Assembly (NCBI GenBank): GCA_965603725.1
Contig: CBFDEC010000007.1
Location: 44,273-108,272, forward strand
DNA: 64,000 bases
Source of the DNA: an uncultured bacterium
GTDB lineage: Bacteria > Zixibacteria > MSB-5A5 > UBA10806 > 4484-95
Direction: 5' to 3'
Under the pieces are notes generated by a model that worked only from the letters and a program-made list of their open reading frames with translations, was not told where the DNA came from and did not search any database. This document shows, piece by piece, positions 685 to 27,693 of this stretch. The position numbers and the translations under genes were made by a program. Each line of letters opens with the position of its first letter. Position 1 is the first letter of the stretch.

Positions 685-3210
685 ATGTTGACTCTTAAAA
701 TTGACGGACAAACAATCGAGTGTTCCGAGGGTAAAACTATACTCGAAGCGGCCGACTCGGCGGGTATTTATATACCGCGTTTGTGTTATCATGCAGACTT
801 GCCGGCTGCTCGTGAAACAACCTGGGCAGATTACATTTTTCAGGGTGACAAAAAAATCGTCGGTGAAAAACCGGGTGAAAAAGCTGGAGAAGACGCTCAT
901 TGCAGTCTGTGTCTCGTTGAAATTAATGGAAATCCCGAGCCGGTAAAATCCTGTATTACGCCTGTCGAGGATGGGATGATTGTCAAAACGGATACCGATA
1001 AGGTAATTCAAAACAGGCAACAGGCTCTTGCCGGAATTCTGGCTGATCATCCGCATGCCTGCCTGACATGCGCCCAGAAAGAGGGCTGCAGTCGGACAGA
1101 TTGCTCAACTAACGTGCCTGAAAATGAAAGGTGCTGTAAGCTTCTTGGACACTGCCATTTTGAAAAAGTCTGTGATTACATAGGCATTCCAGGCGATACT
1201 TCAAAATATATTCCCAAGCATCTTCCTGTAATTAAAGATGATCCGCTTTTCGATCGCGATTACAATCTTTGTATAGGCTGTCTAAGATGCGTACGGGTTT
1301 GTCGTGATGTAAGGGGCGTCAATGCCATCGGAGCTGTCTGGAAGAACGGTCGTTCGTGGGTAGGGACGATTAATGGCCCGGGACTTAAAGAAGCTGAGTG
1401 CCGGTTTTGCGGCGCCTGCGTGGAGATTTGCCCTACCGGAGCATTGACAGATAAAGAAGGCATACTGGCAATCAAAAAAGATGCCCCCTTGCCATGTGTA
1501 GGTAATTGTCCGGCGGGCATTGATATCCCGCGCTATATAAAGTTGATCGCTCTCGGTCGTTATCGTGATGCGCTTAATCTCATTCGCTTCTATGTGCCTT
1601 TTCCCGGTATCCTGGGATACGTCTGTTTTCATCCATGCGAGGATGTCTGCCGCAGAAAAGAAATCGACCAGCCGGTGTCTATCTGTGCCCTTAAACGTTT
1701 CGTCGCCGATGAAGTATCGATTGATGATATTCAACTGCCGGAAAAACAGCCGGATACCGGAAAAAAGATCGCTGTCATTGGCGCTGGTCCAACCGGCTTA
1801 ACAGCGGCATATTATCTTAGTATTATGGGTCATCAGGTTGAACTGTTCGACAGCACCGGTAAGCCGGGGGGCATGCTCAGTCAGGGCATCCCTGATTACA
1901 GATTGCCAGAGGATGCTGTGGAACGAGAATTGGAATCTCTTAATAAGCTAAGCATCGATTTTCATCTGAATTCCCCAATCAGCGATAATTTTGGAATCCC
2001 TGAACTAAAATCTCAGGGCTTCAATGCAATTCTGGTTGCCACGGGGATATCTGAAAGTATAAGTCTGCCTGTAGAAAATTCAAATCTCGATGGAATTACT
2101 CTCGGTCTGGAATTTTTAAAATCAGCAAAACTGCCCTATAAACCGAAACTGGATGGCAATGTTGTAGTCATTGGCGGTGGGAATGTTGCTGTTGATGCCG
2201 CCATGACAGCGGTACGGCTTGGGGCAAAAACTGTTCAACTCGTATGCTTGGAATCGCGTGATGAGATGCCCGCTCATGACTGGGAAATTAGGCAGGCTGA
2301 AGAAGAAAGCATCAAGATAAATCCATCCTGGGGACCAAAATGTTTTACCGGCCAGAAAGGCAAAGTAGCGGGTGTCGATTTAAAGCGCTGTACGAGGGTG
2401 TTTGACGAACATGGCCGGTTTTCTCCTGAATACAATGATGAAGAAATGCACCATATACAAGCCGATCATGTGATTATTACTATTGGCCAGGAAATCGATA
2501 GTGAACTCCTTCATCATATTGTAAGCTTAACGGGAATTACTGGTAATATATTAAAGGTTGATGAAAACTATGCTCTCGGCATCGGTGATGTTTTTGCCGC
2601 CGGTGATGTGATTCGCGGTCCTTCATCTGTTGTCGAGGCCATAGCCGATGGACGTAAAGCCGCCGATGCTATCGACAAGCACCTCGGCGGAAGCGGTATT
2701 GATGAGATTATTTATAAGTTTGAGGAACTTGACGGTCCCAAAATAGACTATACCGCTGAATCGTTTGTAAAAAGCAGACATACTGCAAAGATTTCTAAAC
2801 CCGAAAAACGCAAGTTGGGATTCGGACTGATTGAAGAGACTTTCAAAGAGGAAGCGGCAACAGCGGAAGCCCGGCGATGCTTGCAGTGTCATCTTCGCCA
2901 GATGATTACACCAGACATTTTGCCTCCGGAAAAGTGGCTGCCACTGAAAAAAGAAACTGTGGATTCTATCACCGAAACAGAAGGCGTATTTCAACTTCTA
3001 AACTCCGAAAAGAAGGTGATTCAAATTACAGGAACAGCCAATATCAAAAAAGACTTGTCAGAATGTCTTGAAAATCCCGGAGATGTTGTTTATTTTATCT
3101 ATGAGGAAGACCCTATGTATACTAAACGCGAAAGTGAACTGATACAGCAGTATCTTCAGGAACATGGCGAACTCCCATCGGGCGGCGAACTCAATGACGA
3201 TCTTTTTTAA
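685..3210 (+). CDS. multidomain FeS flavoprotein: NuoG/HndD-type 2Fe-2S plus 4Fe-4S N-terminus fused to a GltD-like (glutamate synthase small chain family) FAD/NAD(P)H oxidoreductase domain, with a C-terminal extension
   Basis: 2Fe-2S ferredoxin-like N-terminus (KIDGQTIEC..CSLC..). HPHACLTCAQKEGC His/Cys cluster. Two CxxCxxCxxxCP motifs. Dinucleotide motifs IAVIGAGPTGLTAAYYL and VVVIGGGNVAVDAAMTAVRLGA. Confidence 0.7.
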   Translation: MLTLKIDGQTIECSEGKTILEAADSAGIYIPRLCYHADLPAARETTWADYIFQGDKKIVGEKPGEKAGEDAHCSLCLVEINGNPEPVKSCITPVEDGMIVKTDTDKVIQNRQQALAGILADHPHACLTCAQKEGCSRTDCSTNVPENERCCKLLGHCHFEKVCDYIGIPGDTSKYIPKHLPVIKDDPLFDRDYNLCIGCLRCVRVCRDVRGVNAIGAVWKNGRSWVGTINGPGLKEAECRFCGACVEICPTGALTDKEGILAIKKDAPLPCVGNCPAGIDIPRYIKLIALGRYRDALNLIRFYVPFPGILGYVCFHPCEDVCRRKEIDQPVSICALKRFVADEVSIDDIQLPEKQPDTGKKIAVIGAGPTGLTAAYYLSIMGHQVELFDSTGKPGGMLSQGIPDYRLPEDAVERELESLNKLSIDFHLNSPISDNFGIPELKSQGFNAILVATGISESISLPVENSNLDGITLGLEFLKSAKLPYKPKLDGNVVVIGGGNVAVDAAMTAVRLGAKTVQLVCLESRDEMPAHDWEIRQAEEESIKINPSWGPKCFTGQKGKVAGVDLKRCTRVFDEHGRFSPEYNDEEMHHIQADHVIITIGQEIDSELLHHIVSLTGITGNILKVDENYALGIGDVFAAGDVIRGPSSVVEAIADGRKAADAIDKHLGGSGIDEIIYKFEELDGPKIDYTAESFVKSRHTAKISKPEKRKLGFGLIEETFKEEAATAEARRCLQCHLRQMITPDILPPEKWLPLKKETVDSITETEGVFQLLNSEKKVIQITGTANIKKDLSECLENPGDVVYFIYEEDPMYTKRESELIQQYLQEHGELPSGGELNDDLF

Positions 3211-3464
3211 TGGCTGATGATTTATTAAATAAATTGAGTTCCAAGGGATGGCAGAAGCAGTTTTCAGCCTCGGGCGCAAGACTGCGGGAAGCTGTCGATA
3301 ATTACCGGAAACTTGGCTTCGAGGTGATGACAATTCCGGCAAGAGAGCTGGTTAATGATGGCTGCAGCGTCTGCTTTGATGACGAAAGCGATGAAACGGT
3401 TATGATTTTCACCCGGAAAACTGATGCGAAAATAGTGGATGAACTGTATGATAATATTGATTAG
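3210..3464 (+). CDS. hypothetical small acidic protein (84 aa)
   Basis: ORF is translationally coupled (TAATG) to the FeS flavoprotein gene. No recognisable motif. Confidence 0.35.
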   Translation: MADDLLNKLSSKGWQKQFSASGARLREAVDNYRKLGFEVMTIPARELVNDGCSVCFDDESDETVMIFTRKTDAKIVDELYDNID

Positions 3465-3518
3465 CTGTCTTTAGAAAACAACAGTAATATTAAAGATTGA
3501 TATGAGGGAAAGGAGATT

Positions 3519-21079: not shown

Positions 21080-21280
21080 CTGATAGAGATCAACGATAAT
21101 TTATGCAAAGGATGCGATATCTGTATCGAGTTTTGCCCTTTGAAAGTGTTTGAAAAGTCAGAGAAGCTCAATAGAAAAGGCTACTATGTCCCGATTGTTG
21201 CCAATGAGGATGATTGTGTGGGATGCCGCCTATGCGAGATGCTTTGCCCGGAGTTTGCCATAATTGTTACCAATGAATGA
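21080..21280 (+). CDS. 2-oxoacid:ferredoxin oxidoreductase delta subunit (2x[4Fe-4S] ferredoxin, PorD-like) with a non-canonical start (CTG 21080 or ATA 21083)
   Basis: Translation from stop to stop gives LIEINDNLCKGCDICIEFCP...CVGCRLCEMLCPEFAIIVTNE, two canonical CxxCxxCxxxCP motifs. AAGGAGG lies 7 nt upstream. There is no ATG/GTG/TTG start, so it is absent from the ORF track. It sits directly upstream of an alpha subunit gene. Confidence 0.55.
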   Translation: MIEINDNLCKGCDICIEFCPLKVFEKSEKLNRKGYYVPIVANEDDCVGCRLCEMLCPEFAIIVTNE

Positions 21281-21308: not shown

Positions 21309-22472
21309 ATGGCAATTGACGAAAACAGAAAGCAATATCTTAACCGGCTCGAAGGTAAAAACTATTTTATCCTTGGAGATGAGGCCTGCGCTTATGGGGC
21401 TATTTATGCCGGCTGTGATTTTTTTGCCGGCTACCCGATAACGCCAGCCAGTGAAGTGGCCGAACTGATCGCCGAGGAGCTTCCCAAAGCAGGCGGCATC
21501 TGTATTCAGATGGAGGATGAACTGGCAAGTATGTCGGCAATTATCGGCGCCTCATGGACCAACGCTCGCACCATGACAGCCACCAGCGGACCCGGCTTCT
21601 CGCTCATGCAGGAAAATATCGGCTATGCAATAATGACTGAAACGCCCTGTGTGATTGTTGATGTCCAGCGTTCTGGACCCTCCACCGGTCAGGCCACCAA
21701 ACCCGCTCAGGGAGATGTGCTTCAGGCACGCTGGGGAACTCATGGAGACCATAACATAATTGCTTTGGCTCCTAATTCCGTGCAGGAATGCCTTGACCTA
21801 ATGCTGGATTGTTTCGATCTTGCCGACATCTACAGAACCCCGGTTATTCTGCTGATGGACGGAGAAATTGGCCATATCAGGGAAAGTGTCACCATGCCGA
21901 AACTTTCAACTATCAAACATGTATCGAGGAAGTTAGCTGGACCCGGCGAGGAAGTATTCGGCGGCTCCGAGCTTGTGCCGGGAATGATTCATTACGGTAA
22001 GGGTCATAATGTTCATGTTACCGGATCGACTCATCTGTCAAGCGGTATGAGAGATGTATCAACACAGAAGGTTCATGATGTTCTCATAAATAGAATTTAT
22101 AAAAAAATCGATACCAATAGAGAAAAAATCGTGCGTGTCGAGAAAGATATTTCCAAAAATAAAAATGCCCGGGTCGGCGTCATATCCTATGGAGCAACTG
22201 CCAGACCGGCGCACGGAGCAGTTAAACGGGCGCGCCTTGATGGCATAAAAGTAGATTTCCTCAGACTGATTACTATCTGGCCATTTGCCCGAAAGCAGGT
22301 TGCCGAATTCAGTAAAAATCTTGATGTTATATTGGCTCCCGAAATGAACCTGGGGCAGTTATCAAGGGAAATCGAGCGGTTTGTGAACTGCGATGTAGTC
22401 TCTGTACCAAAGATAGGCGGTGTACCTCACACAGTCGATGAGATATATAATGCCATCCAGGAGGTATCCTGA
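21309..22472 (+). CDS. 2-oxoacid:ferredoxin oxidoreductase alpha subunit (set 2)
   Basis: GDEACAYGAIYAGCDFFAGYPITPASE, a VorA/PorA-type N-terminus. Confidence 0.8.
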   Translation: MAIDENRKQYLNRLEGKNYFILGDEACAYGAIYAGCDFFAGYPITPASEVAELIAEELPKAGGICIQMEDELASMSAIIGASWTNARTMTATSGPGFSLMQENIGYAIMTETPCVIVDVQRSGPSTGQATKPAQGDVLQARWGTHGDHNIIALAPNSVQECLDLMLDCFDLADIYRTPVILLMDGEIGHIRESVTMPKLSTIKHVSRKLAGPGEEVFGGSELVPGMIHYGKGHNVHVTGSTHLSSGMRDVSTQKVHDVLINRIYKKIDTNREKIVRVEKDISKNKNARVGVISYGATARPAHGAVKRARLDGIKVDFLRLITIWPFARKQVAEFSKNLDVILAPEMNLGQLSREIERFVNCDVVSVPKIGGVPHTVDEIYNAIQEVS

Positions 22473-23317
22473 TGGGCGAATACAGGCACAGGCTGATGGA
22501 CTATGTCAGGGAAGAGATTATGCCTCACCGCTTTTGTGTGGGATGCGGTTGCGGAACTGTATTGAATGCCTTTACAAATGCAATTGACGGTCTCGACCTT
22601 GATCCCGCAAAGATGGTTTGCGTTTCCGGTATCGGTTGTTCGTCATGGATTCCCAGCCCGTACTTCAAATCGGATACGCTTCACACCACCCATGGCCGAC
22701 CGATAGCTTTCGCAACCGGCGTTAAAATCATGAGACCTGATTTAACAGTTGTGGTAATTGCCGGTGACGGGGATGTTGCCGGTATTGGCGGCAATCATCT
22801 CATTCATGCCGCCCGGCGTAATATCGATCTCTCGGTTTTCATGGTCAATAACATGATCTATGGCATGACTGGCGGCCAGGTTGCGCCTACTACGCCTGTA
22901 GGAGTTAAGACCAGCACGACGCCGCATAGAAATGTCGAGCCCGCATTCAAAGCGGCCGACCTGGTGACTGCGGCTGGCGCCAGTTATGTGGCCAGATGGA
23001 CGACCTATCATGTTTTCCCGCTCATGGAGTCGATGCAGAATGCTATTAAAAAGAAAGGGTTTAGCTTTATTGAGATTGTATCTCAATGCCCGGAAAACTA
23101 CGGTCGCCGGATCGGTTTGAGAACCGCCAACGATTTCCTGAAGCGATTTAAAGAACAGTCCATACGGATTGAGAAAACTAAAAATATGTCTGAAGAAGAG
23201 CTCGAAAATAAAATTGTAATCGGCAAATTCTGCGATATGGACAGGCCTGAATATGTGTCAGAGTTGCATAAGCTCACAAATGAGCTTGTTGAGGGAGTGA
23301 AAAAGGAGAAAAGTTAA
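22472..23317 (+). CDS. 2-oxoacid:ferredoxin oxidoreductase beta subunit (set 2, TPP-binding)
   Basis: FCVGCGCGTV, GDGDVAGIGGNH and TPHRNVEP motifs. ATGA overlap with the alpha gene. Confidence 0.8.
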   Translation: MGEYRHRLMDYVREEIMPHRFCVGCGCGTVLNAFTNAIDGLDLDPAKMVCVSGIGCSSWIPSPYFKSDTLHTTHGRPIAFATGVKIMRPDLTVVVIAGDGDVAGIGGNHLIHAARRNIDLSVFMVNNMIYGMTGGQVAPTTPVGVKTSTTPHRNVEPAFKAADLVTAAGASYVARWTTYHVFPLMESMQNAIKKKGFSFIEIVSQCPENYGRRIGLRTANDFLKRFKEQSIRIEKTKNMSEEELENKIVIGKFCDMDRPEYVSELHKLTNELVEGVKKEKS

Positions 23318-23539
23318 CAGCTAAGAAGTATGCTAAACGTGGTGTCGACCCTCGGGAGGTTGTGCCAAAAGCGTGTCTCTGTGTTTGGCGAACTACGACT
23401 CCCGAAACGAGGTTCATGCATCTTATAGTAGCTCAATAGAATACATGCATTAAGCTACCGAAATCATTGTTCGGGCAGCACCCGATATGGACTTTTGGCA
23501 CCGCCTGTCGGTGGTCGACACAATGACCTGCAGAAAGAA

Positions 23540-23565
23540 AGCTGTCGACCGCGGAGAGTCGACAG
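23540..23565. repeat. perfect hairpin gctgtcgac-cgcggaga-gtcgacagc inside a GC-rich structured 384-bp intergenic region containing several GTCGAC-centred inverted repeats
   Basis: Read directly. Three gtcgac-containing palindromic segments lie between 23338 and 23565. Confidence 0.45.
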
Positions 23566-23619
23566 CACCAGGATTGCATAGATTGCTTTCCCTACGGGTC
23601 GCAATGACAGAATATTATG

Positions 23620-23655
23620 TTTCGGCAGGTCGTAGCGAAGCGTGACCTGCCGAAT
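23620..23655. repeat. hairpin repeat copy 1: ttcggcaggtc-gtagcgaagcgt-gacctgccgaa (11-bp stem, 12-nt loop)
   Basis: 31 of 32 bases identical to copy 3 at 24664-24698. Shares the caggtc/gacctg core with the copy at 24283-24311. Confidence 0.6.
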
Positions 23656-23701
23656 GAAGAAAAATAAGCAGTATTAAGACTTTAAAATGAGGAAACCTTA
23701 A

Positions 23702-24265
23702 TTGATAATACGTTTTGCCGGTTTTGGCGGACAGGGGATAGTGCTGTCAAGCTATATCATGGGGCAGTCGGCTGTTTTTGATGGCAAGAAAGCTTTGCAG
23801 AACCAGTCGTACGGCAGTGAATCACGCGGCGGCGAGTGCCGCGGCGATGTGGTCATTTCCGATGAGGCAATCTTCGATCTAGAACCGACCTGTTATGATG
23901 TTTTAGTAGCCATGACCCAGCCCGCTTATGATAAATTCATCGCTCTTTTAAGACCCTGCGGCACGCTTATATTAGATAAAGATCTCGTGGTAACCGACAA
24001 CAGCCTTGAACCTGAAGGCATAAAAAAATATGGTATCAGCGCAACTGACATTGCATTTAAGAAATTTGGACGAAAGATCGTGGCTAATATGGTGCTGCTT
24101 GGTTTTATGAATACGCTGCTAAACATGGTATCGGATAAAGCGCTGGAGGATGCCATCTCAAAAAACGTTCCCGACGGAACTCAACAGATGAACCTCGATG
24201 CCATGCATGAAGGTATCGAGATTGCTAAGCAGGAGATGAAAGGAAAGAAAAGGCTGAAACGATGA
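23702..24265 (+). CDS. 2-oxoacid:ferredoxin oxidoreductase gamma subunit, paralogue 1 (TTG start)
   Basis: [15 protein letters not shown]...[10 protein letters not shown], a PorG family protein. Confidence 0.7.
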
Positions 24266-24660
24266 GGACCGAGATTAATCCGTCAGGTCACCCCTGCGGG
24301 TACGACCTGACTAAACAAGAATTTAGAGATTTGAGATCACAAATTGTGACCTCAAACAGGGGTGGCCGCCGTTATCTTCCATATGCTTTCACTGAACAAG
24401 GCGTTGCCATGCTTTCCAGTATTTTACGAAGTCACCAAGCTGTTCAAGTTAACATCGAAATAATAAGAACTTTTGTCAAGCTTCGCCAATTATTATCAAA
24501 ACATAAAGATTTAGAAAAGCGGCTTGACAATTTAGAGAAAAAATATGATAAGCAGTTTAGAGTTGTTTTTGATGCTATTCGTCAATTGATGGCCCCTCCG
24601 CAATCGAAGCGACGGCTAATTGGATTTAAAAAAGATCAAAAGAATGAAGACCGAGATTAA
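24262..24660 (+). CDS. N-terminally truncated ORF6N-domain (KilA-N-like DNA-binding, prophage-associated) protein fragment fused to a duplicated porG start codon
   Basis: [16 protein letters not shown] and [37 protein letters not shown] match the conserved core of ORF6N-domain proteins (from memory). Its first 14 nt (atgaggaccgagat) repeat the start of the downstream porG2 (atgaggaccgaaat). Confidence 0.5.
24283..24311. repeat. hairpin repeat copy 2 (gtcaggtc-acccctgcgggta-gacctgac) inside the 5' end of the ORF6N fragment
   Basis: Read directly. Same caggtc/gacctg stem core as copies 1 and 3. Confidence 0.5.
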
Positions 24661-24663
24661 TAG

Positions 24664-24698
24664 TTTCGGCAGGTCGTAGCGAAGCGTGACCTGCTGAA
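24664..24698. repeat. hairpin repeat copy 3 (tttcggcaggtc-gtagcgaagcgt-gacctgctgaa)
   Basis: Near-identical to copy 1. Followed by an A-rich segment and aatgagga, as in copy 1. Confidence 0.6.
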
Positions 24699-24728
24699 GG
24701 ATAAAATAATGAAGAAGAGATTTCAGCA

Positions 24729-25289
24729 ATGAGGACCGAAATCAGGTTCGTAGCTTTCGGCGGCCAGGGGATAATTTTAGCCGGTGTTATCTTCGGCGAG
24801 GGCGCTATCAACGATGGCAAGAACGCTGTCCAGACTCAATCGTACGGCCCGGAATCCAGAGGCGGCGCCGCCAGAGCTGAGGTAATAATCTCAGGTGAAA
24901 AAATCGATTACCCGATGGTCATAGAGGCTGATTTCCTAATTGCTTTGTCACAGCCGGGATATGATAAGTATATTGCTGAAATCAAACCCGGGTCCACAGT
25001 CATAATTGATGAAGACCTGGTGGATGCGGAAAAGCCTCCTGTAGAATGTGCGTTCTACAAACTGCCATTTGCCAGAGCAGCCGACAGGCTCGGTAACAGA
25101 ATAGTCATGAACACCATTATGCTTGGCAGCGTTTGTTCAATAACAGGAGTAATCGGCAAAGAGAGTCTGCTGAAGGCAGTTAAATCCAATGTACCGGAAA
25201 AATTTCTCGAACTTAATATAAAAGCTTTTAATGAAGGTTATAAAATCGGTCAGCAGACCGTGAAACAAAAAAATATTAATAAGAAATGA
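24729..25289 (+). CDS. 2-oxoacid:ferredoxin oxidoreductase gamma subunit, paralogue 2
   Basis: MRTEIRFVAFGGQGIILAG..QSYGPESRGG. About 40% identical to paralogue 1. Confidence 0.75.
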   Translation: MRTEIRFVAFGGQGIILAGVIFGEGAINDGKNAVQTQSYGPESRGGAARAEVIISGEKIDYPMVIEADFLIALSQPGYDKYIAEIKPGSTVIIDEDLVDAEKPPVECAFYKLPFARAADRLGNRIVMNTIMLGSVCSITGVIGKESLLKAVKSNVPEKFLELNIKAFNEGYKIGQQTVKQKNINKK

Positions 25290-26527
25290 AAAAGCAGAAA
25301 ACCAGTTTCAAAATCAAAGCAAGGTATAAGCCATCAAGACCTTTTACCAAAGATGATTTTAGCAGGGTCAGGCGAGTACTGGGTAAAAAGGTTATGTTTA
25401 CTCAGGGTGATATCGCTGTAAGTTATGGCGGCTTGCTGGCCGGCTGCCGTTTTTTTGCCGGGTATCCGATCACTCCGGCAACGGAAGCCGCTGAGATGAT
25501 GTCATTTCTGATGCCTAAGATTGGCGGAGTCTGCATCCAGATGGAGGATGAAATTGCCTCAATCGGGGCGATTATCGGCGCCTCACGTAGTGGGGCTAAA
25601 TCGATGACCGCTACCAGCGGTCCCGGGTTCTCGCTTATGCAGGAAAACATAGGTTATGCGGCAATGACTGAAACGCCATGCGTGATTATTGATGTTCAGA
25701 GGTCGGGACCATCAACAGGCCAGCCAACCGAAGGCGCCCAGGGCGATATCATGCAGGCCAAGTGGGGCAGCCATGGCGACTATGAACTGATAGCCTTATC
25801 ACCCAGCACGGTTCAGGAGTGTTTAGACCTGACTATTGAGGCTTTCAATCTGTCGGAGACTTACCAGGTTCCGGTGATATTGCTTACCGATGGCATCATC
25901 GGACACATGCGGGAAAAGATAGTCCTGCCCGAATATGAAGATATAAAATTTGTCTGGCGTAAGGAAACGTCGGCCCCCAAAGATAAATATGAACCATTCA
26001 AAGATGATGGCACAAAAATCCCGGAGATGTCAACATTCGGCGCTGGCTACCATGCTTATATCACCGGTTTGACTCATAAGGAAAGCGGTTACCCGAGCAC
26101 GGATAATCAAGCCGATCACGATCGCCTTGTTAGACGTCTGTGTGACAAAATAAGAATAAACAGCGAAAAAATCATCCAGGTAGAACGCGACTTTCAGGAT
26201 ACCAATGAAGATAAAACTACCGGTATAATCAGCTATGGCGTCACATCGCGAACGGTCAATTATGTAGTGAAACAATTGCGGCAAACGGGATTGAAAATCG
26301 ATCATTTGCGAATTATCACCAACTGGCCGTTCCCTGAAAACGAGGTTGCTGAACTTGCCGAAAGAGTTGACAGAATTATCGTCCCGGAGTTGAATCTTGG
26401 CCAGGTTTGTCATAGCGTTAAAGAAGCGGTCGCAGGCAGGTGTGAGGTTGTGCCTGTATGGAAAACCGGCGGTCTAATGCATACACCGCAGGAGATTATT
26501 GACGTTATTAACAGGAAATCCGATTAA
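25286..26527 (+). CDS. 2-oxoacid:ferredoxin oxidoreductase alpha subunit (set 3)
   Basis: GDIAVSYGGLLAGCRFFAGYPITPATE. ATGA overlap with the gamma gene. Confidence 0.8.
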   Translation: MKKQKTSFKIKARYKPSRPFTKDDFSRVRRVLGKKVMFTQGDIAVSYGGLLAGCRFFAGYPITPATEAAEMMSFLMPKIGGVCIQMEDEIASIGAIIGASRSGAKSMTATSGPGFSLMQENIGYAAMTETPCVIIDVQRSGPSTGQPTEGAQGDIMQAKWGSHGDYELIALSPSTVQECLDLTIEAFNLSETYQVPVILLTDGIIGHMREKIVLPEYEDIKFVWRKETSAPKDKYEPFKDDGTKIPEMSTFGAGYHAYITGLTHKESGYPSTDNQADHDRLVRRLCDKIRINSEKIIQVERDFQDTNEDKTTGIISYGVTSRTVNYVVKQLRQTGLKIDHLRIITNWPFPENEVAELAERVDRIIVPELNLGQVCHSVKEAVAGRCEVVPVWKTGGLMHTPQEIIDVINRKSD

Positions 26528-27360
26528 TGTTCAGACAGGTAAAACATATAAGAGAAAAATATCTCGAGGAAAATATGTGGCCGTCGATTTTCTGCCAGGG
26601 CTGTGGAATAGGAACCGCGTTAAACTGTTCTCTTCGGGCTATAGATAAAGTCGGTCTGGATATAGATAAAACGGTGTTTATCTCGGGCATAGGCTGTTCA
26701 TCAAGGCTTCCCGGTTATATCGACGCTGATGGGCTTCACACTACGCATGGCAGAGCAATCGCTTTTGCTACCGGCGTGAAGCTTGCCAATCCCGAACTTG
26801 ATATCATTGTATTCACCGGCGATGGCGACCTTGCCGGCATTGGCGGCAATCATTTCATCCATGCGGCGAGAAGAAATGTCGACATGACCGTGATCTGCAT
26901 CAACAACTATAACTATGGAATGACCGGCGCTCAGGTGTCGCCTACCACACCGATTGGGGGATTCACAATGACCTCGCCGTTCGGCAATATCGAAAGCCCG
27001 TTTGACCTTTCTGCTCTGGCGATAGGCGCGGGGGCTCCATACGTGGCTAAATGGACTACTGTTTATCCCCAGGAAACTATGATGGCAATAAAAAAGGGGA
27101 TCGAAAAGAAAGGTTTCTCATTCATAGAGGTTCTCACTCCCTGCCCAATCGGCTACGGCAGAAAAAATAAATTGAAGGATGGGCCGGAAAATCTTCTGTG
27201 GTATAAGAGAAATACCATTGGCAGATCGCGGTACGAAAAGCTTTCAGATGAAGAAAAACTCAAATGCGACAAAATCGTAATAGGTGAATTGCGGAATGTG
27301 GAAAAGCCGGAGTTTGCCGCGGAGTGGTTTAAGCTGGTGGACGAAGTTTATGTTGAGTAA
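26527..27360 (+). CDS. 2-oxoacid:ferredoxin oxidoreductase beta subunit (set 3)
   Basis: IFCQGCGIGTALN and GDGDLAGIGGNH motifs. Confidence 0.8.
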   Translation: MFRQVKHIREKYLEENMWPSIFCQGCGIGTALNCSLRAIDKVGLDIDKTVFISGIGCSSRLPGYIDADGLHTTHGRAIAFATGVKLANPELDIIVFTGDGDLAGIGGNHFIHAARRNVDMTVICINNYNYGMTGAQVSPTTPIGGFTMTSPFGNIESPFDLSALAIGAGAPYVAKWTTVYPQETMMAIKKGIEKKGFSFIEVLTPCPIGYGRKNKLKDGPENLLWYKRNTIGRSRYEKLSDEEKLKCDKIVIGELRNVEKPEFAAEWFKLVDEVYVE

Positions 27361-27693
27361 GATGTTTCTTCACTGCAAATTCTTAAGTTAATCATAACCA
27401 GTATAGACGATCATTCAGAGGGTTTACCGGACAAGATATTAATTTCACAGAACTATCCAAACCCGTTTAATTCCTCTACAATTATACAATACAGCCTGCC
27501 CGATGAAGCTTATGTAACTATTAATATCTATGATCTTCTTGGTCGCAATATTGAAACGTTAGCCGGCAAACAGCAATCTGCCGGTCTTTACCAGGTTCCC
27601 TGGAATGCCTATAATTTTCCATCGGGAATATACTTCTATAAGATTCAGGCGGGTGACTTCTCAGGTACAAAAAAGATGATATTGATGAAATGA
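27361..27693 (+). pseudogene. orphan T9SS (Por secretion) C-terminal sorting-domain remnant, with no start codon and no gene body
   Basis: The stop-to-stop frame translates to ...LPDKILISQNYPNPFNSSTIIQYSLPDEAYVTINIYDLLGRNIETLAGKQQSAGLYQVPWNAYNFPSGIYFYKIQAGDFSGTKKMILMK, a textbook T9SS CTD. It has no ATG/GTG/TTG and is in frame with, and directly after, the TAA stop of porB2. Confidence 0.5.

Follow-up and report, generated by a model that had tools for sequence, protein, structure and literature searches.

REP hairpins of a RAYT transposase family at two gamma-subunit gene junctions in a Zixibacteria operon

We analysed a 64-kb stretch of DNA from an uncultured Zixibacteria bacterium (hereafter the window) and found that three hairpins next to two genes for gamma subunits, gamma1 and gamma2, belong to the REP family of a RAYT, a REP-associated tyrosine transposase. 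In our best explanation, to which we assign a probability of roughly 85%, the three hairpins are REPs recognised and moved by a RAYT, and the RAYT unit of this lineage resides, or once resided, between gamma1 and gamma2. The features of the locus are collected in Table 1.

Table 1. Features of the gamma1/gamma2 locus, in window coordinates.
Feature	Position	Strand	Description
Palindrome-rich insert	23318-23595		Strain-specific, MITE-like; inverted repeat I1
Segment common to sister strains	23569-23701	+	Within 92.5%-identical alignment, window 23569-24374 to L008 214-1027
REP copy A0	23617-23658	+	GTTTCGGCAGGTCGTAGCGAAGCGTGACCTGCCGAA; ~45 nt 5' of gamma1 TTG; covariance model R1 60.4 bits, E = 2.7e-21
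gamma1	23702-24265	+	TTG start; Pfam POR PF01558, E = 5e-29
X1	24262-24279	+	ATGAGGACCGAGATTAAT; ancestral gamma1-stop/gamma2-start junction, now start of ORF6N remnant; D2 family
ORF6N remnant ORF	24262-24660	+	132 codons; duplicated gamma2 start, REP B1 read-through and ORF6N/KilA-N-like C-terminal two thirds
REP copy B1	24275-24318	- (inverted)	R1 44.2 bits on minus strand vs 10.5 on plus; inverted repeats I8, I11
X2	24643-24660	+	ATGAAGACCGAGATTAAT; third copy, ends ORF6N remnant, directly 5' of REP A2; D2 family
REP copy A2	24661-24702	+	R1 53 bits; ~30 nt 5' of gamma2 ATG
gamma2	24729-25289	+	186-aa POR-family ORF; Pfam POR, E = 4e-38
X3	24729-24744	+	ATGAGGACCGAAATCA; working gamma2 start

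The original prediction described two near-identical hairpins at 23620 and 24664 and a third, related one near 24283. The first two were confirmed as an exact repeat, as TTTCGGCAGGTCGTAGCGAAGCGTGACCTGC occurs at exactly these two positions with a chance expectation of 0; the exact repeat between copies A0 and A2 is about 31-32 nt long, and the stretch common to both amounts to 44 nt at 91% identity (direct repeat D4). The motif CAGGTC-loop-GACCTG was found three times in the window against 0.01 expected, with its third copy at 24284-24309. This third hairpin, B1, proved to be the same element, and its inverted orientation, indicated by the scores of covariance model R1 on the two strands, was newly seen here. 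B1 lies directly 3' of the gamma1 stop and the duplicated gamma2 start, and on the plus strand its 3' arm extends into ORF6N homology. Folded as single-stranded DNA, the three hairpins reached -13.3, -10.2 and -11.2 kcal/mol, with z scores of -4 to -6 (-13.3 kcal/mol and z = -6.2 for A0). A scan of the whole window with R1 detected only these three REPs, all of them at the gamma1/gamma2 locus.

Dispersed copies of the same hairpin were met in related genomes, whereas the window holds its three at one locus. The identical 20-nt core was present on 29 contigs of the MAG CAZFSN01 and on contigs of at least three Zixibacteria MAGs, including four contigs of Gpa_9, and the hairpin core was also found in a MAG labelled Ignavibacteria. 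Most copies (31 of the 36 checked) lay outside open frames of at least 120 codons, and many were arranged as inverted doublets. An alignment of 35 copies yielded a 14-pair helix with 92.9% of cells paired and compensatory changes at six pairs (59 cells). The covariation score was 0.327 against 0.085 for shuffled data, which reached it in 0 of 500 trials, and sliding the pairing partners destroyed the signal (0.03-0.08). The sequence (G/T)TAG was almost invariant at columns 16-19, between the main stem and an inner mini-hairpin (GCGAAGC), and the stem was preceded by a conserved GTT. Around the REPs of other genomes, 8-kb stretches contained neither RAYT nor ORF6N genes. When JGI metagenomes were searched with the stem variant specific to this locus (YGGCAGGTCGTAGCGAAGCGTGACCTGC), the sister-strain contig was the only match; this pattern was probably too narrow, since stems vary among copies.

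The link to a transposase came from two sister strains (L008 and L009, 92-94% DNA identity), which carry a decaying Y1 transposase gene between gamma1 and gamma2 with the same hairpins on both sides. Window positions 24659-27367 align to L008 1636-4342 at 94.1%, and A2 is co-linear with the L008 REP at 1638-1679; B1 has its orthologue at L008 928-971, and A0 has one in both sisters, inside a 106-nt block that is 96% identical. The sister order is REP(-), 70 nt of ORF6N, REP(+), RAYT gene, REP(-), REP(+), and that of the window's strain is REP(-), a longer ORF6N remnant and REP(+), with no RAYT; neither the gamma1/gamma2 gap nor the rest of the 64-kb window contained a RAYT homologue. The sequence 5' of A2 showed no significant homology to the short spacer between the last two L008 REPs (1412 of 2000 shuffles scored as well). 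With its one in-frame stop read through, the L008 protein scored 88.7 bits against the NCBIfam model NF047646, 'REP-associated tyrosine transposase' (cutoff 80), 20.6 bits against the IS200 model NF033573 (cutoff 55) and 27.3 bits against Pfam Y1_Tnp (PF01797). It also matched the E. coli TnpA-REP structure 4ER8 (E = 6e-9) over a region covering SHIH (the HxH/HUH motif) and YIHNNPVK (YIxxNPVK). A look-up of the sister protein P0124 gave no record. Both sister genes are broken, by an in-frame stop in L008 and a frameshifting deletion in L009, and intact orthologues, several of which are labelled RayT by JGI, have 159 aa and are 62-67% identical. A REP(+) immediately precedes each intact orthologue and an inverted REP(-) immediately follows it; RAYT genes flanked by inverted REPs were found at L008/L009, L075, L076 and L078.

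We also considered whether the hairpins, instead of being REPs of a domesticated RAYT, could be the left and right ends of an IS200/IS605 insertion sequence or of a miniature derivative. Such an element would account for an enzyme of the same Y1/HUH superfamily flanked by subterminal hairpins, for the lack of target duplication at other units and for the many homologues on short contigs, which resemble multi-copy elements. However, the protein exceeds the cutoff of the RAYT model but not that of the IS200 model, the flanking hairpins are one sequence in inverted orientation and not distinct ends, and no tnpB lies beside the RAYT at the sister loci or the loci of intact orthologues. Moreover, hairpins without a transposase far outnumber transposase copies on the 29 fetched CAZFSN01 contigs. 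We regard the insertion-sequence reading as very unlikely and take the hairpins as members of a REP family.

The two gamma genes belong to neighbouring enzymes: gamma1 is the gamma subunit of an upstream delta-alpha-beta-gamma 2-oxoacid:ferredoxin oxidoreductase set, and gamma2 is the first gene of a downstream gamma-alpha-beta set. Their predicted identity of about 40% was borne out (41% between the proteins), which supports the suggestion that the hairpin family is far younger than the gamma1/gamma2 split; the description of the pair as simple tandem porG duplicates did not hold, as delta-alpha-beta-gamma1 and gamma2-alpha-beta are separate enzyme sets. Orthologues of gamma1 likewise start with TTG, and this start overlaps the beta stop. 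In more distant Zixibacteria loci (L069-L074), beta1 and gamma1 overlap by TTGA, the gamma1/gamma2 junction is an ATGA overlap or a 59-nt gap, and a covariance model scan detected no REP. Given that these distant relatives have overlapping stop/start junctions and no hairpins, the spacers upstream of gamma1 and of gamma2 are both insertions into junctions that overlap in these relatives. For segment 24276-24728, proposed earlier as an insertion to be checked at orthologous loci, the comparison agreed: it is absent from REP-free relatives, indicating an insertion of 24266-24728. The same comparison supports the spacer 5' of gamma1 as inserted DNA. A search for duplication of the beta1 3' end before gamma1 in the window and L069 revealed little beyond a shared AAGGAG ribosome-binding motif (502/2000 and 91/2000 shuffles).

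These junctions bear directly on a proposal of the original prediction, that the hairpins are native 5'-UTR stem-loops (attenuators, RNA-stability elements or protein-binding sites) of both gamma genes, homogenised by gene conversion. REP-free orthologous operons have overlapping junctions and lack a 5'-UTR altogether, and elsewhere the same hairpin flanks RAYT genes and sits at dozens of unrelated loci. The arrangement that could suggest a leader is that A0 and A2 share their orientation, lie 30-45 nt 5' of the gamma starts, are highly similar over their common stretch, and are both followed by A-rich sequence and AATGAGGA. However, B1 is inverted and partly read through as coding sequence, and the similarity 3' of A0 and A2, once taken as a shared leader of A-rich sequence plus aatgagga, is at chance level (1356 of 5000 shuffles score equally); AATGAGGA occurs four times in the window. 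A promoter and terminator scan of 23200-24850 returned chance-level counts, with no terminator-like site on the plus strand. A regulatory origin of the hairpins is thus extremely improbable in our judgement.

The 384-nt spacer 23318-23701 had been described as GC-rich and full of GTCGAC palindromes, and as a possible structured RNA or MITE. The description stands, with a GC content of 47.7% against 41.7% for the window, four of the window's ten GTCGAC sites, and an RNA fold at z = -6.2 against shuffled versions. The suggested identity as a structured RNA found no counterpart among known families: a search of 22800-25300 against Rfam (E up to 10) assigned no family to either spacer, and the sole match was to a snoRNA model at 24229-24276, below threshold with 25.3 bits where the gathering score is 50. 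The palindrome-rich insert at the 5' side contains a long hairpin of 180 nt, whose arms of 30 nt lie at 23342-23371 and 23492-23521, as well as a GCTGTCGAC/GTCGACAGC hairpin at 23541-23566, and it had no match in L008/L009, any other fetched locus or the rest of the window. In the segment common to the sister strains, a small palindrome of the form GATTGC...CGCAATGAC is accompanied by REP A0 and by the leader of gamma1, which includes a GAGGA ribosome-binding site.

The gap between gamma1 and gamma2 carries an ORF whose predicted nature, a 5'-truncated ORF6N fragment, was confirmed by profile search: Pfam ORF6N (PF10543) matched only at profile positions 45-86 of 86 (E = 4.7e-12). The domain is therefore incomplete, with about 58 N-terminal residues missing in comparison with full-length homologues of 170-185 aa. 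ORF6N homology spans 24301-24648 (the tblastn start being at 24301), and residues 14-132 are 60-75% identical to the C-terminal two thirds of family members. The ATG of this ORF overlaps the gamma1 stop (cgATGAgg); its first five codons (MRTEI) derive from gamma2, the roughly ten that follow come from the hairpin, and its last codons and stop are another copy of the gamma2 start. The overlap, together with the match of this junction to L069, supports the idea that the fragment captured the gamma2 start at the gamma1 stop. L008 and L009 keep only the first 97 nt of the ORF. The 132-codon ORF is a chimeric gene remnant at a site where translation is coupled to gamma1; it is probably translated through this coupling, and is most likely functionless.

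ORF6N genes are common in phages, and relatives of the remnant were found at 209 viral contig loci. Segment 24266-24728 might accordingly be read as the remnant of a prophage or mobile island, or as a cut-and-paste MITE whose hairpins are terminal inverted repeats and whose target-site duplication is 14-16 bp long, the more so as inverted hairpins (B1 on the minus strand, A2 on the plus) and directly repeated copies of the gamma2 start bracket the insert. However, what it holds is a 116-codon fragment of one gene with no further phage gene, and the best viral homologue is 62% identical compared with 72-75% for non-viral contigs. Viral contigs lacked the REP core, and no REP lay near viral ORF6N genes. 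A DDE transposase is absent, and a 16-nt target duplication would be unusually long for one; moreover, the direct repeat is present three times and is not placed immediately outside both hairpins. We find this origin scarcely credible, and the MITE with a target-site duplication envisaged earlier gives way to a REP/RAYT family served by an HUH Y1 transposase.

The repeated gamma2 start is more complex than the 14-bp duplication first reported. That duplication exists, X1 (ATGAGGACCGAGAT, 24262) and X3 (ATGAGGACCGAAAT, 24729) agreeing at 13 of 14 positions (8 of 2000 shuffles gave an equal score), but the copies number three: the overlooked X2 (ATGAAGACCGAGATTAAT, 24643) matches X1 at 17 of 18 positions, and 0 of 2000 shuffles reached this local alignment. 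X1 is identical to the gamma2 start of sister L008 (16/16) and matches the L069 overlap junction GGGATGAGAACTGATATCA. With three copies present, and with no flanking duplication at the family's other RAYT units, it is doubtful whether a transposase made this repeat as a target-site duplication. Y1 transposition leaves no target duplication, and the other units have none, so the triple repeat falls outside the mechanism that we propose. It could reflect two successive REP/RAYT-mediated insertions at one nucleotide, each copying the target and guided by the REP-core near-copy CAGGTTCGTAGC just downstream within gamma2, an account that we hold to be very unlikely. If true, it would represent a RAYT integration mode that duplicates its target and is able to carry a captured fragment (REP-ORF6N-REP); to our knowledge, neither target duplication nor gene-fragment capture is known for Y1 transposases.

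By analogy with E. coli TnpA-REP and IS608, for which this has been shown, a RAYT would have brought in the elements by cutting and rejoining single strands at the hairpins. The insertion may have been tolerated because a copy of gamma2's first 16 nt on each side kept the gamma1 stop and the gamma2 start intact. In the window's lineage, the RAYT could then have been lost via recombination between two directly repeated REP(+) copies, and in the sister lineage, 284 nt of the ORF6N remnant could have been lost through TTA microhomology. Given that the plus strand has no terminator-like site, the operon is probably still transcribed through. The hairpins are likely to be intercistronic in the mRNA now, breaking the former translational coupling. 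E. coli REPs act as RNA-stability or processing points, and by analogy the hairpins may serve as such points here.

REP/RAYT systems have been studied almost exclusively in Proteobacteria, and these findings extend their range to the uncultivated Zixibacteria. They also provide a natural series, from insertion-free operons through sisters with a decaying RAYT unit to the window's strain with hairpins and a gene relic only, which shows the entry, persistence and erosion of such units in a tightly coupled operon. As regards annotation, the 132-codon 'ORF6N protein' is no gene but a chimeric remnant; for k-mer assemblies, the exact hairpin repeat yields false circular contigs.

Several known systems resemble this locus in part. 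The remnant is like the C-terminal two thirds of ORF6N/KilA-N-like DNA-binding proteins and lacks the N-terminal half of their domain. IS200/IS605 elements (IS608, ISDra2) and palindrome-associated miniature derivatives share a Y1 HUH transposase acting on single-stranded hairpins and the absence of target duplication at ordinary insertions, but they have distinct left and right ends and tnpB, whereas the ends here are identical and inverted, tnpB is missing and the protein falls below the IS200 cutoff. The closest comparators are Proteobacterial REPtrons and REPINs, namely E. coli REP/BIME with TnpA-REP (4ER8) and the REPINs of Pseudomonas fluorescens (PMC3116915, PMC3337134, PMC5581495, PMC3733652). 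They share with the Zixibacteria family a palindrome some 40 nt long whose core is invariant, whose outer stem covaries and which includes a conserved GTAG, a RAYT gene of roughly 160 aa between two inverted copies, and transposase-less extragenic copies that often form inverted doublets, with the RAYT absent or decaying in some strains. A GTAG (or CGTC) tetranucleotide tag at one end is a criterion for REPs in the 2013 survey (PMC3733652), which did not include the phyla of the present hosts, uncultivated Zixibacteria and a MAG labelled Ignavibacteria; GTAG lies inside the hairpin in the Zixibacteria REPs, but at the 5' end of classical GTAG-tagged ones (PMC3733652). In contrast to the Proteobacterial systems, the unit described here is lodged in a conserved operon where a stop and a start codon overlap, a captured gene fragment lies within one of the REP pairs, the copy number is apparently very low (three in 64 kb), and a triple direct repeat is present that REP/RAYT biology does not predict. 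The locus neatly exemplifies a type of element that is already known, and it leaves the picture of how REPs and RAYTs work unchanged.

The window carries two full, co-directional gene sets for 2-oxoacid:ferredoxin oxidoreductase, so that the 'porG' pair consists of the final gene of set 1 (gamma1) and the opening gene of set 2 (gamma2). The two gamma proteins were 41% identical, close to the 40% originally estimated, and the nearest named homologues of gamma1 were found in Zixibacteria MAGs (70-80% identity). The ferredoxin-like delta subunit is intact (66 aa, 82% identical to its counterpart in the orthologous Zixibacteria operon L070), with a start codon that is none of ATG, GTG and TTG, which explains why the ORF list gives just 46 aa and why the gene is uncalled on contig L001. 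In beta1, 36 nt (22538-22573) coding for VGCGCGTVLNAF in the Cys-rich N-terminal motif are absent from L001 (269 aa versus 281 in the window), which is otherwise 99.98% identical; this gap is either a subunit-damaging strain variant or an assembly difference.

Features of the two gene sets and of the repeats associated with them
Feature	Position	Sequence or remark
delta	about 21080-21280	set 1
alpha1	21309-22472	set 1
beta1	22472-23317	set 1
gamma1	23702-24265	set 1
gamma2	24729-25289	set 2
alpha2	25286-26527	set 2
beta2	26527-27360	set 2
hairpin A0	23617-23658	direct (+)
hairpin B1	24275-24318	inverted (-)
hairpin A2	24661-24702	direct (+)
ORF6N remnant	24262-24660	132 codons
gamma2-start repeat, copy 1	24262	ATGAGGACCGAGATTAAT
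gamma2-start repeat, copy 2	24643	ATGAAGACCGAGATTAAT
gamma2-start repeat, copy 3	24729	ATGAGGACCGAAATCAGG

Within the 64 kb, exact copies of the 31-mer TTTCGGCAGGTCGTAGCGAAGCGTGACCTGC were confined to 23620 and 24664, with none expected by chance, as anticipated for two near-identical hairpins, and CAGGTC-loop-GACCTG occurs three times against 0.01 expected. The third hairpin, originally described only as related, does exist but is inverted: it best matched the other two as reverse complement (repeat finding, I8 and I11), and R1, a covariance model of the hairpin, scored 44.2 bits on its minus strand versus 10.5 on the plus strand. With filters off, R1 detected no copies in the window beyond these three. 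Two of the hairpins are indeed followed by the noted A-rich stretch and AATGAGGA, but this resemblance does not exceed chance expectation. The Logan contigs L004 and L005 (1074 nt) are circular permutations of the segment from one direct hairpin to the other (window 23609-24698), most likely through k-mer graph collapse on a 32-nt exact repeat (1044-nt spacing) rather than as an excised circle.

The decisive evidence on hairpin identity came from the sequences of relatives. Contigs with identical proteins (L001-L007) belong to the same strain, at 99.98% identity, and were uninformative. No copy of the hairpin was found in orthologous operons at greater distance (gamma1 identity 75-79%); in L070-L074 the TTG with which gamma1 starts is overlapped by the beta1 stop (TTGA), in L069 the gamma2 ATG and the gamma1 stop likewise overlap (GGGATGAGAACTGATATCAGG), and in L070 59 nt separate gamma1 from gamma2. 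This comparison, which the original prediction had proposed for 24276-24728, shows that both spacers are insertions. Two sister-strain contigs (L008 and L009, DNA identity 92-94%) carry a Y1 transposase-domain gene in the gamma1/gamma2 gap. As derived from the sequence and the covariance model, the order there downstream of gamma1 is hairpin (-), the initial 70 nt of the ORF6N remnant, hairpin (+), the transposase gene, a second hairpin (-), a spacer of about 24 nt, a second hairpin (+), the common leader and gamma2.

Judged by its profile and structure matches, the L008 transposase is a REP-associated tyrosine transposase (RAYT). With one in-frame stop read through, it passed the cutoff of 80 for NCBIfam NF047646 'REP-associated tyrosine transposase' with 88.7 bits, the IS200 model gave just 20.6 bits, below its cutoff of 55, and it matched the E. 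coli TnpA-REP structure 4ER8 (E = 6e-9). The L009 gene has a frameshifting deletion; together with the L008 stop, this marks the gene as decaying in L008 and L009 alike. Intact orthologues (159 aa, 62-67% identity, several JGI-labelled RayT) were fetched from three other contexts, each with a direct hairpin of the family immediately 5' and an inverted one immediately 3', which is the described REP-RAYT unit layout (PMC3116915, PMC3733652). No RAYT homologue was found in the 64-kb window itself. The original reading as a mobile repeat was right in kind, the family being REP/RAYT, while its alternative, a regulatory 5'-UTR hairpin copied by gene conversion, was rejected.

A search for the 20-nt core GSTCGTAGCGAAGCGTGAYC, in which each species was represented by one genome, yielded 58 stretches. 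After inspection, 29 contigs came from one MAG labelled Ignavibacteria (CAZFSN01), one from a second MAG so labelled and six from three Zixibacteria MAGs; on another Zixibacteria contig (L020), the core is present and the hairpin only partial. The other matches, mostly in high-GC genomes and without the flanking stem, are best read as chance. True copies share an invariant inner core, and their outer stems vary with compensation (e.g. GGCAGGTC/GACCTGCC, GACAGGTC/GACCTGTC and GTCGGGTC/GACCCGAC). In a 35-copy alignment, 92.9% of cells were paired, with two-sided changes at 6 pairs (59 cells), and the covariation score was 0.327 versus 0.085 in shuffles, reached by none of 500; sliding the partners by 1-3 columns lowered pairing to 28-41%. 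Many copies form inverted doublets, and 31 of 36 lie outside open frames of at least 120 codons. In CAZFSN01 loci (e.g. L018, L023, L025, L026 and L034), a conserved CAGACTGTTGACAAA precedes most REPs by about 25 nt, and an inverted REP or a second hairpin type (GTCAGGCCTCAAGGTCTTGGCGATC) usually follows within about 10 nt, so the mobile unit there exceeds one hairpin.

The predicted 5'-truncated ORF6N fragment was borne out: the Pfam match covers only profile positions 45-86 of 86, about 58 N-terminal residues of the full-length relatives (170-185 aa) are missing, and homology starts precisely at the border with the inverted REP (24301). This very large family, with more than 8000 relatives found, has members in viral contigs too, where copies are at most 62% identical and lack REPs. 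Contigs of only about 1-1.3 kb carry many of the closest relatives, which fits genes located in repeated or hypervariable DNA. The window and L008 are co-linear save for one replacement, in which 284 nt of ORF6N remnant in the window (24375-24658) stand against 608 nt of REP(+), RAYT, REP(-) and spacer in L008. The simplest account would be a common ancestor with both segments, from which recombination between two direct REPs would have deleted the RAYT in the window lineage, and a deletion between GTTA and ...GATTA would have taken most of the remnant in the sister lineage; the sequence expected from that deletion is GTTAATAG, and L008 reads GTTAACAG. An equally parsimonious history is that the RAYT unit inserted into the remnant with an accompanying deletion.

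The proposed duplication of the gamma2 start is real, with three copies instead of two (repeat family D2; matches to the 24262 copy reached by at most 8 of 2000 shuffles). Given that gamma1 ends in ...KKRLK-stop with ATGA, the same as in L069, the copy at 24262 represents the junction in its ancestral form, and the gamma2 start now in use is another copy, 467 nt further on. The 24262 copy is identical to the sister-strain gamma2 allele at 16 of 16 nt, and the left copy in L008 has decayed (GATAAGCACCAAAATTT), making the duplication older than the split of these strains. The 24643 copy, which matches the 24262 copy at 17 of 18 positions, closes the ORF6N remnant, providing its final codons and its stop, directly 5' of the downstream REP. 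Y1 transposases are not known to duplicate their target, and no duplication was found at three other RAYT units of this REP family; the repeats therefore do not resemble a mark left by a transposase. Possible origins are two events nested at one point, copying of a unit made up of repeat plus REP, or selection for events that preserve both stop and start at an overlapping junction. Just past the insertion point, gamma2 coding sequence 24742-24765 (TCAGGTTCGTAGCTTTCGGCGGCCAGG) contains apparent near-copies of the invariant REP core (CAGGTTCGTAGC / CAGGTCGTAGC, with one extra T) and of the locus-specific stem foot (TTTCGGC / TTTCGGC..AGG); REP-free relatives read CAGGTTCGTCGC there.

The 384-nt beta1/gamma1 spacer was predicted to be GC-rich and full of GTCGAC palindromes, and we observed a GC content of 47.7% versus 41.7% for the window, 4 of the 10 GTCGAC sites present in the window and folding far better than shuffles (z = -6.2). 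As to the suggested structured RNA, no known Rfam family matched the spacer. Block 23318-23595, which holds a hairpin 180 nt long (arms of 30 nt) and a GCTGTCGAC/GTCGACAGC hairpin, had no match in Rfam, the rest of the window or any fetched locus. The block is missing in sister strains, which have other palindromes instead, and it has the appearance of another, unrelated insertion, likewise small and palindromic. A further small palindromic element, of a different kind (GATTGC...GGGTCGCAATGAC), lies just 5' of A0 (23573-23608); sister strains share it with a longer loop (L008 214-260), and a similar unit opens L008 (1-70). At the same beta1/gamma1 junction, the more distant relative L069 carries an independent REP-free insertion of about 660 nt (2821-3480) with a 171-aa hydrophobic ORF that gave a weak Rce1-like match. 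The junction seems to accept insertions repeatedly.

No terminator-like site was found on the coding strand and promoter-like sites were no commoner than chance, so transcription probably continues through the operon. The ATGA overlap suggests that the 132-codon remnant may be translated by coupling to gamma1, and by extrapolation from E. coli REP biology the hairpins might act in mRNA stability or processing. Overall, the hairpin observation is confirmed and sharpened: the family belongs to an already-known kind of system, and the locus is a further example of REP/RAYT.
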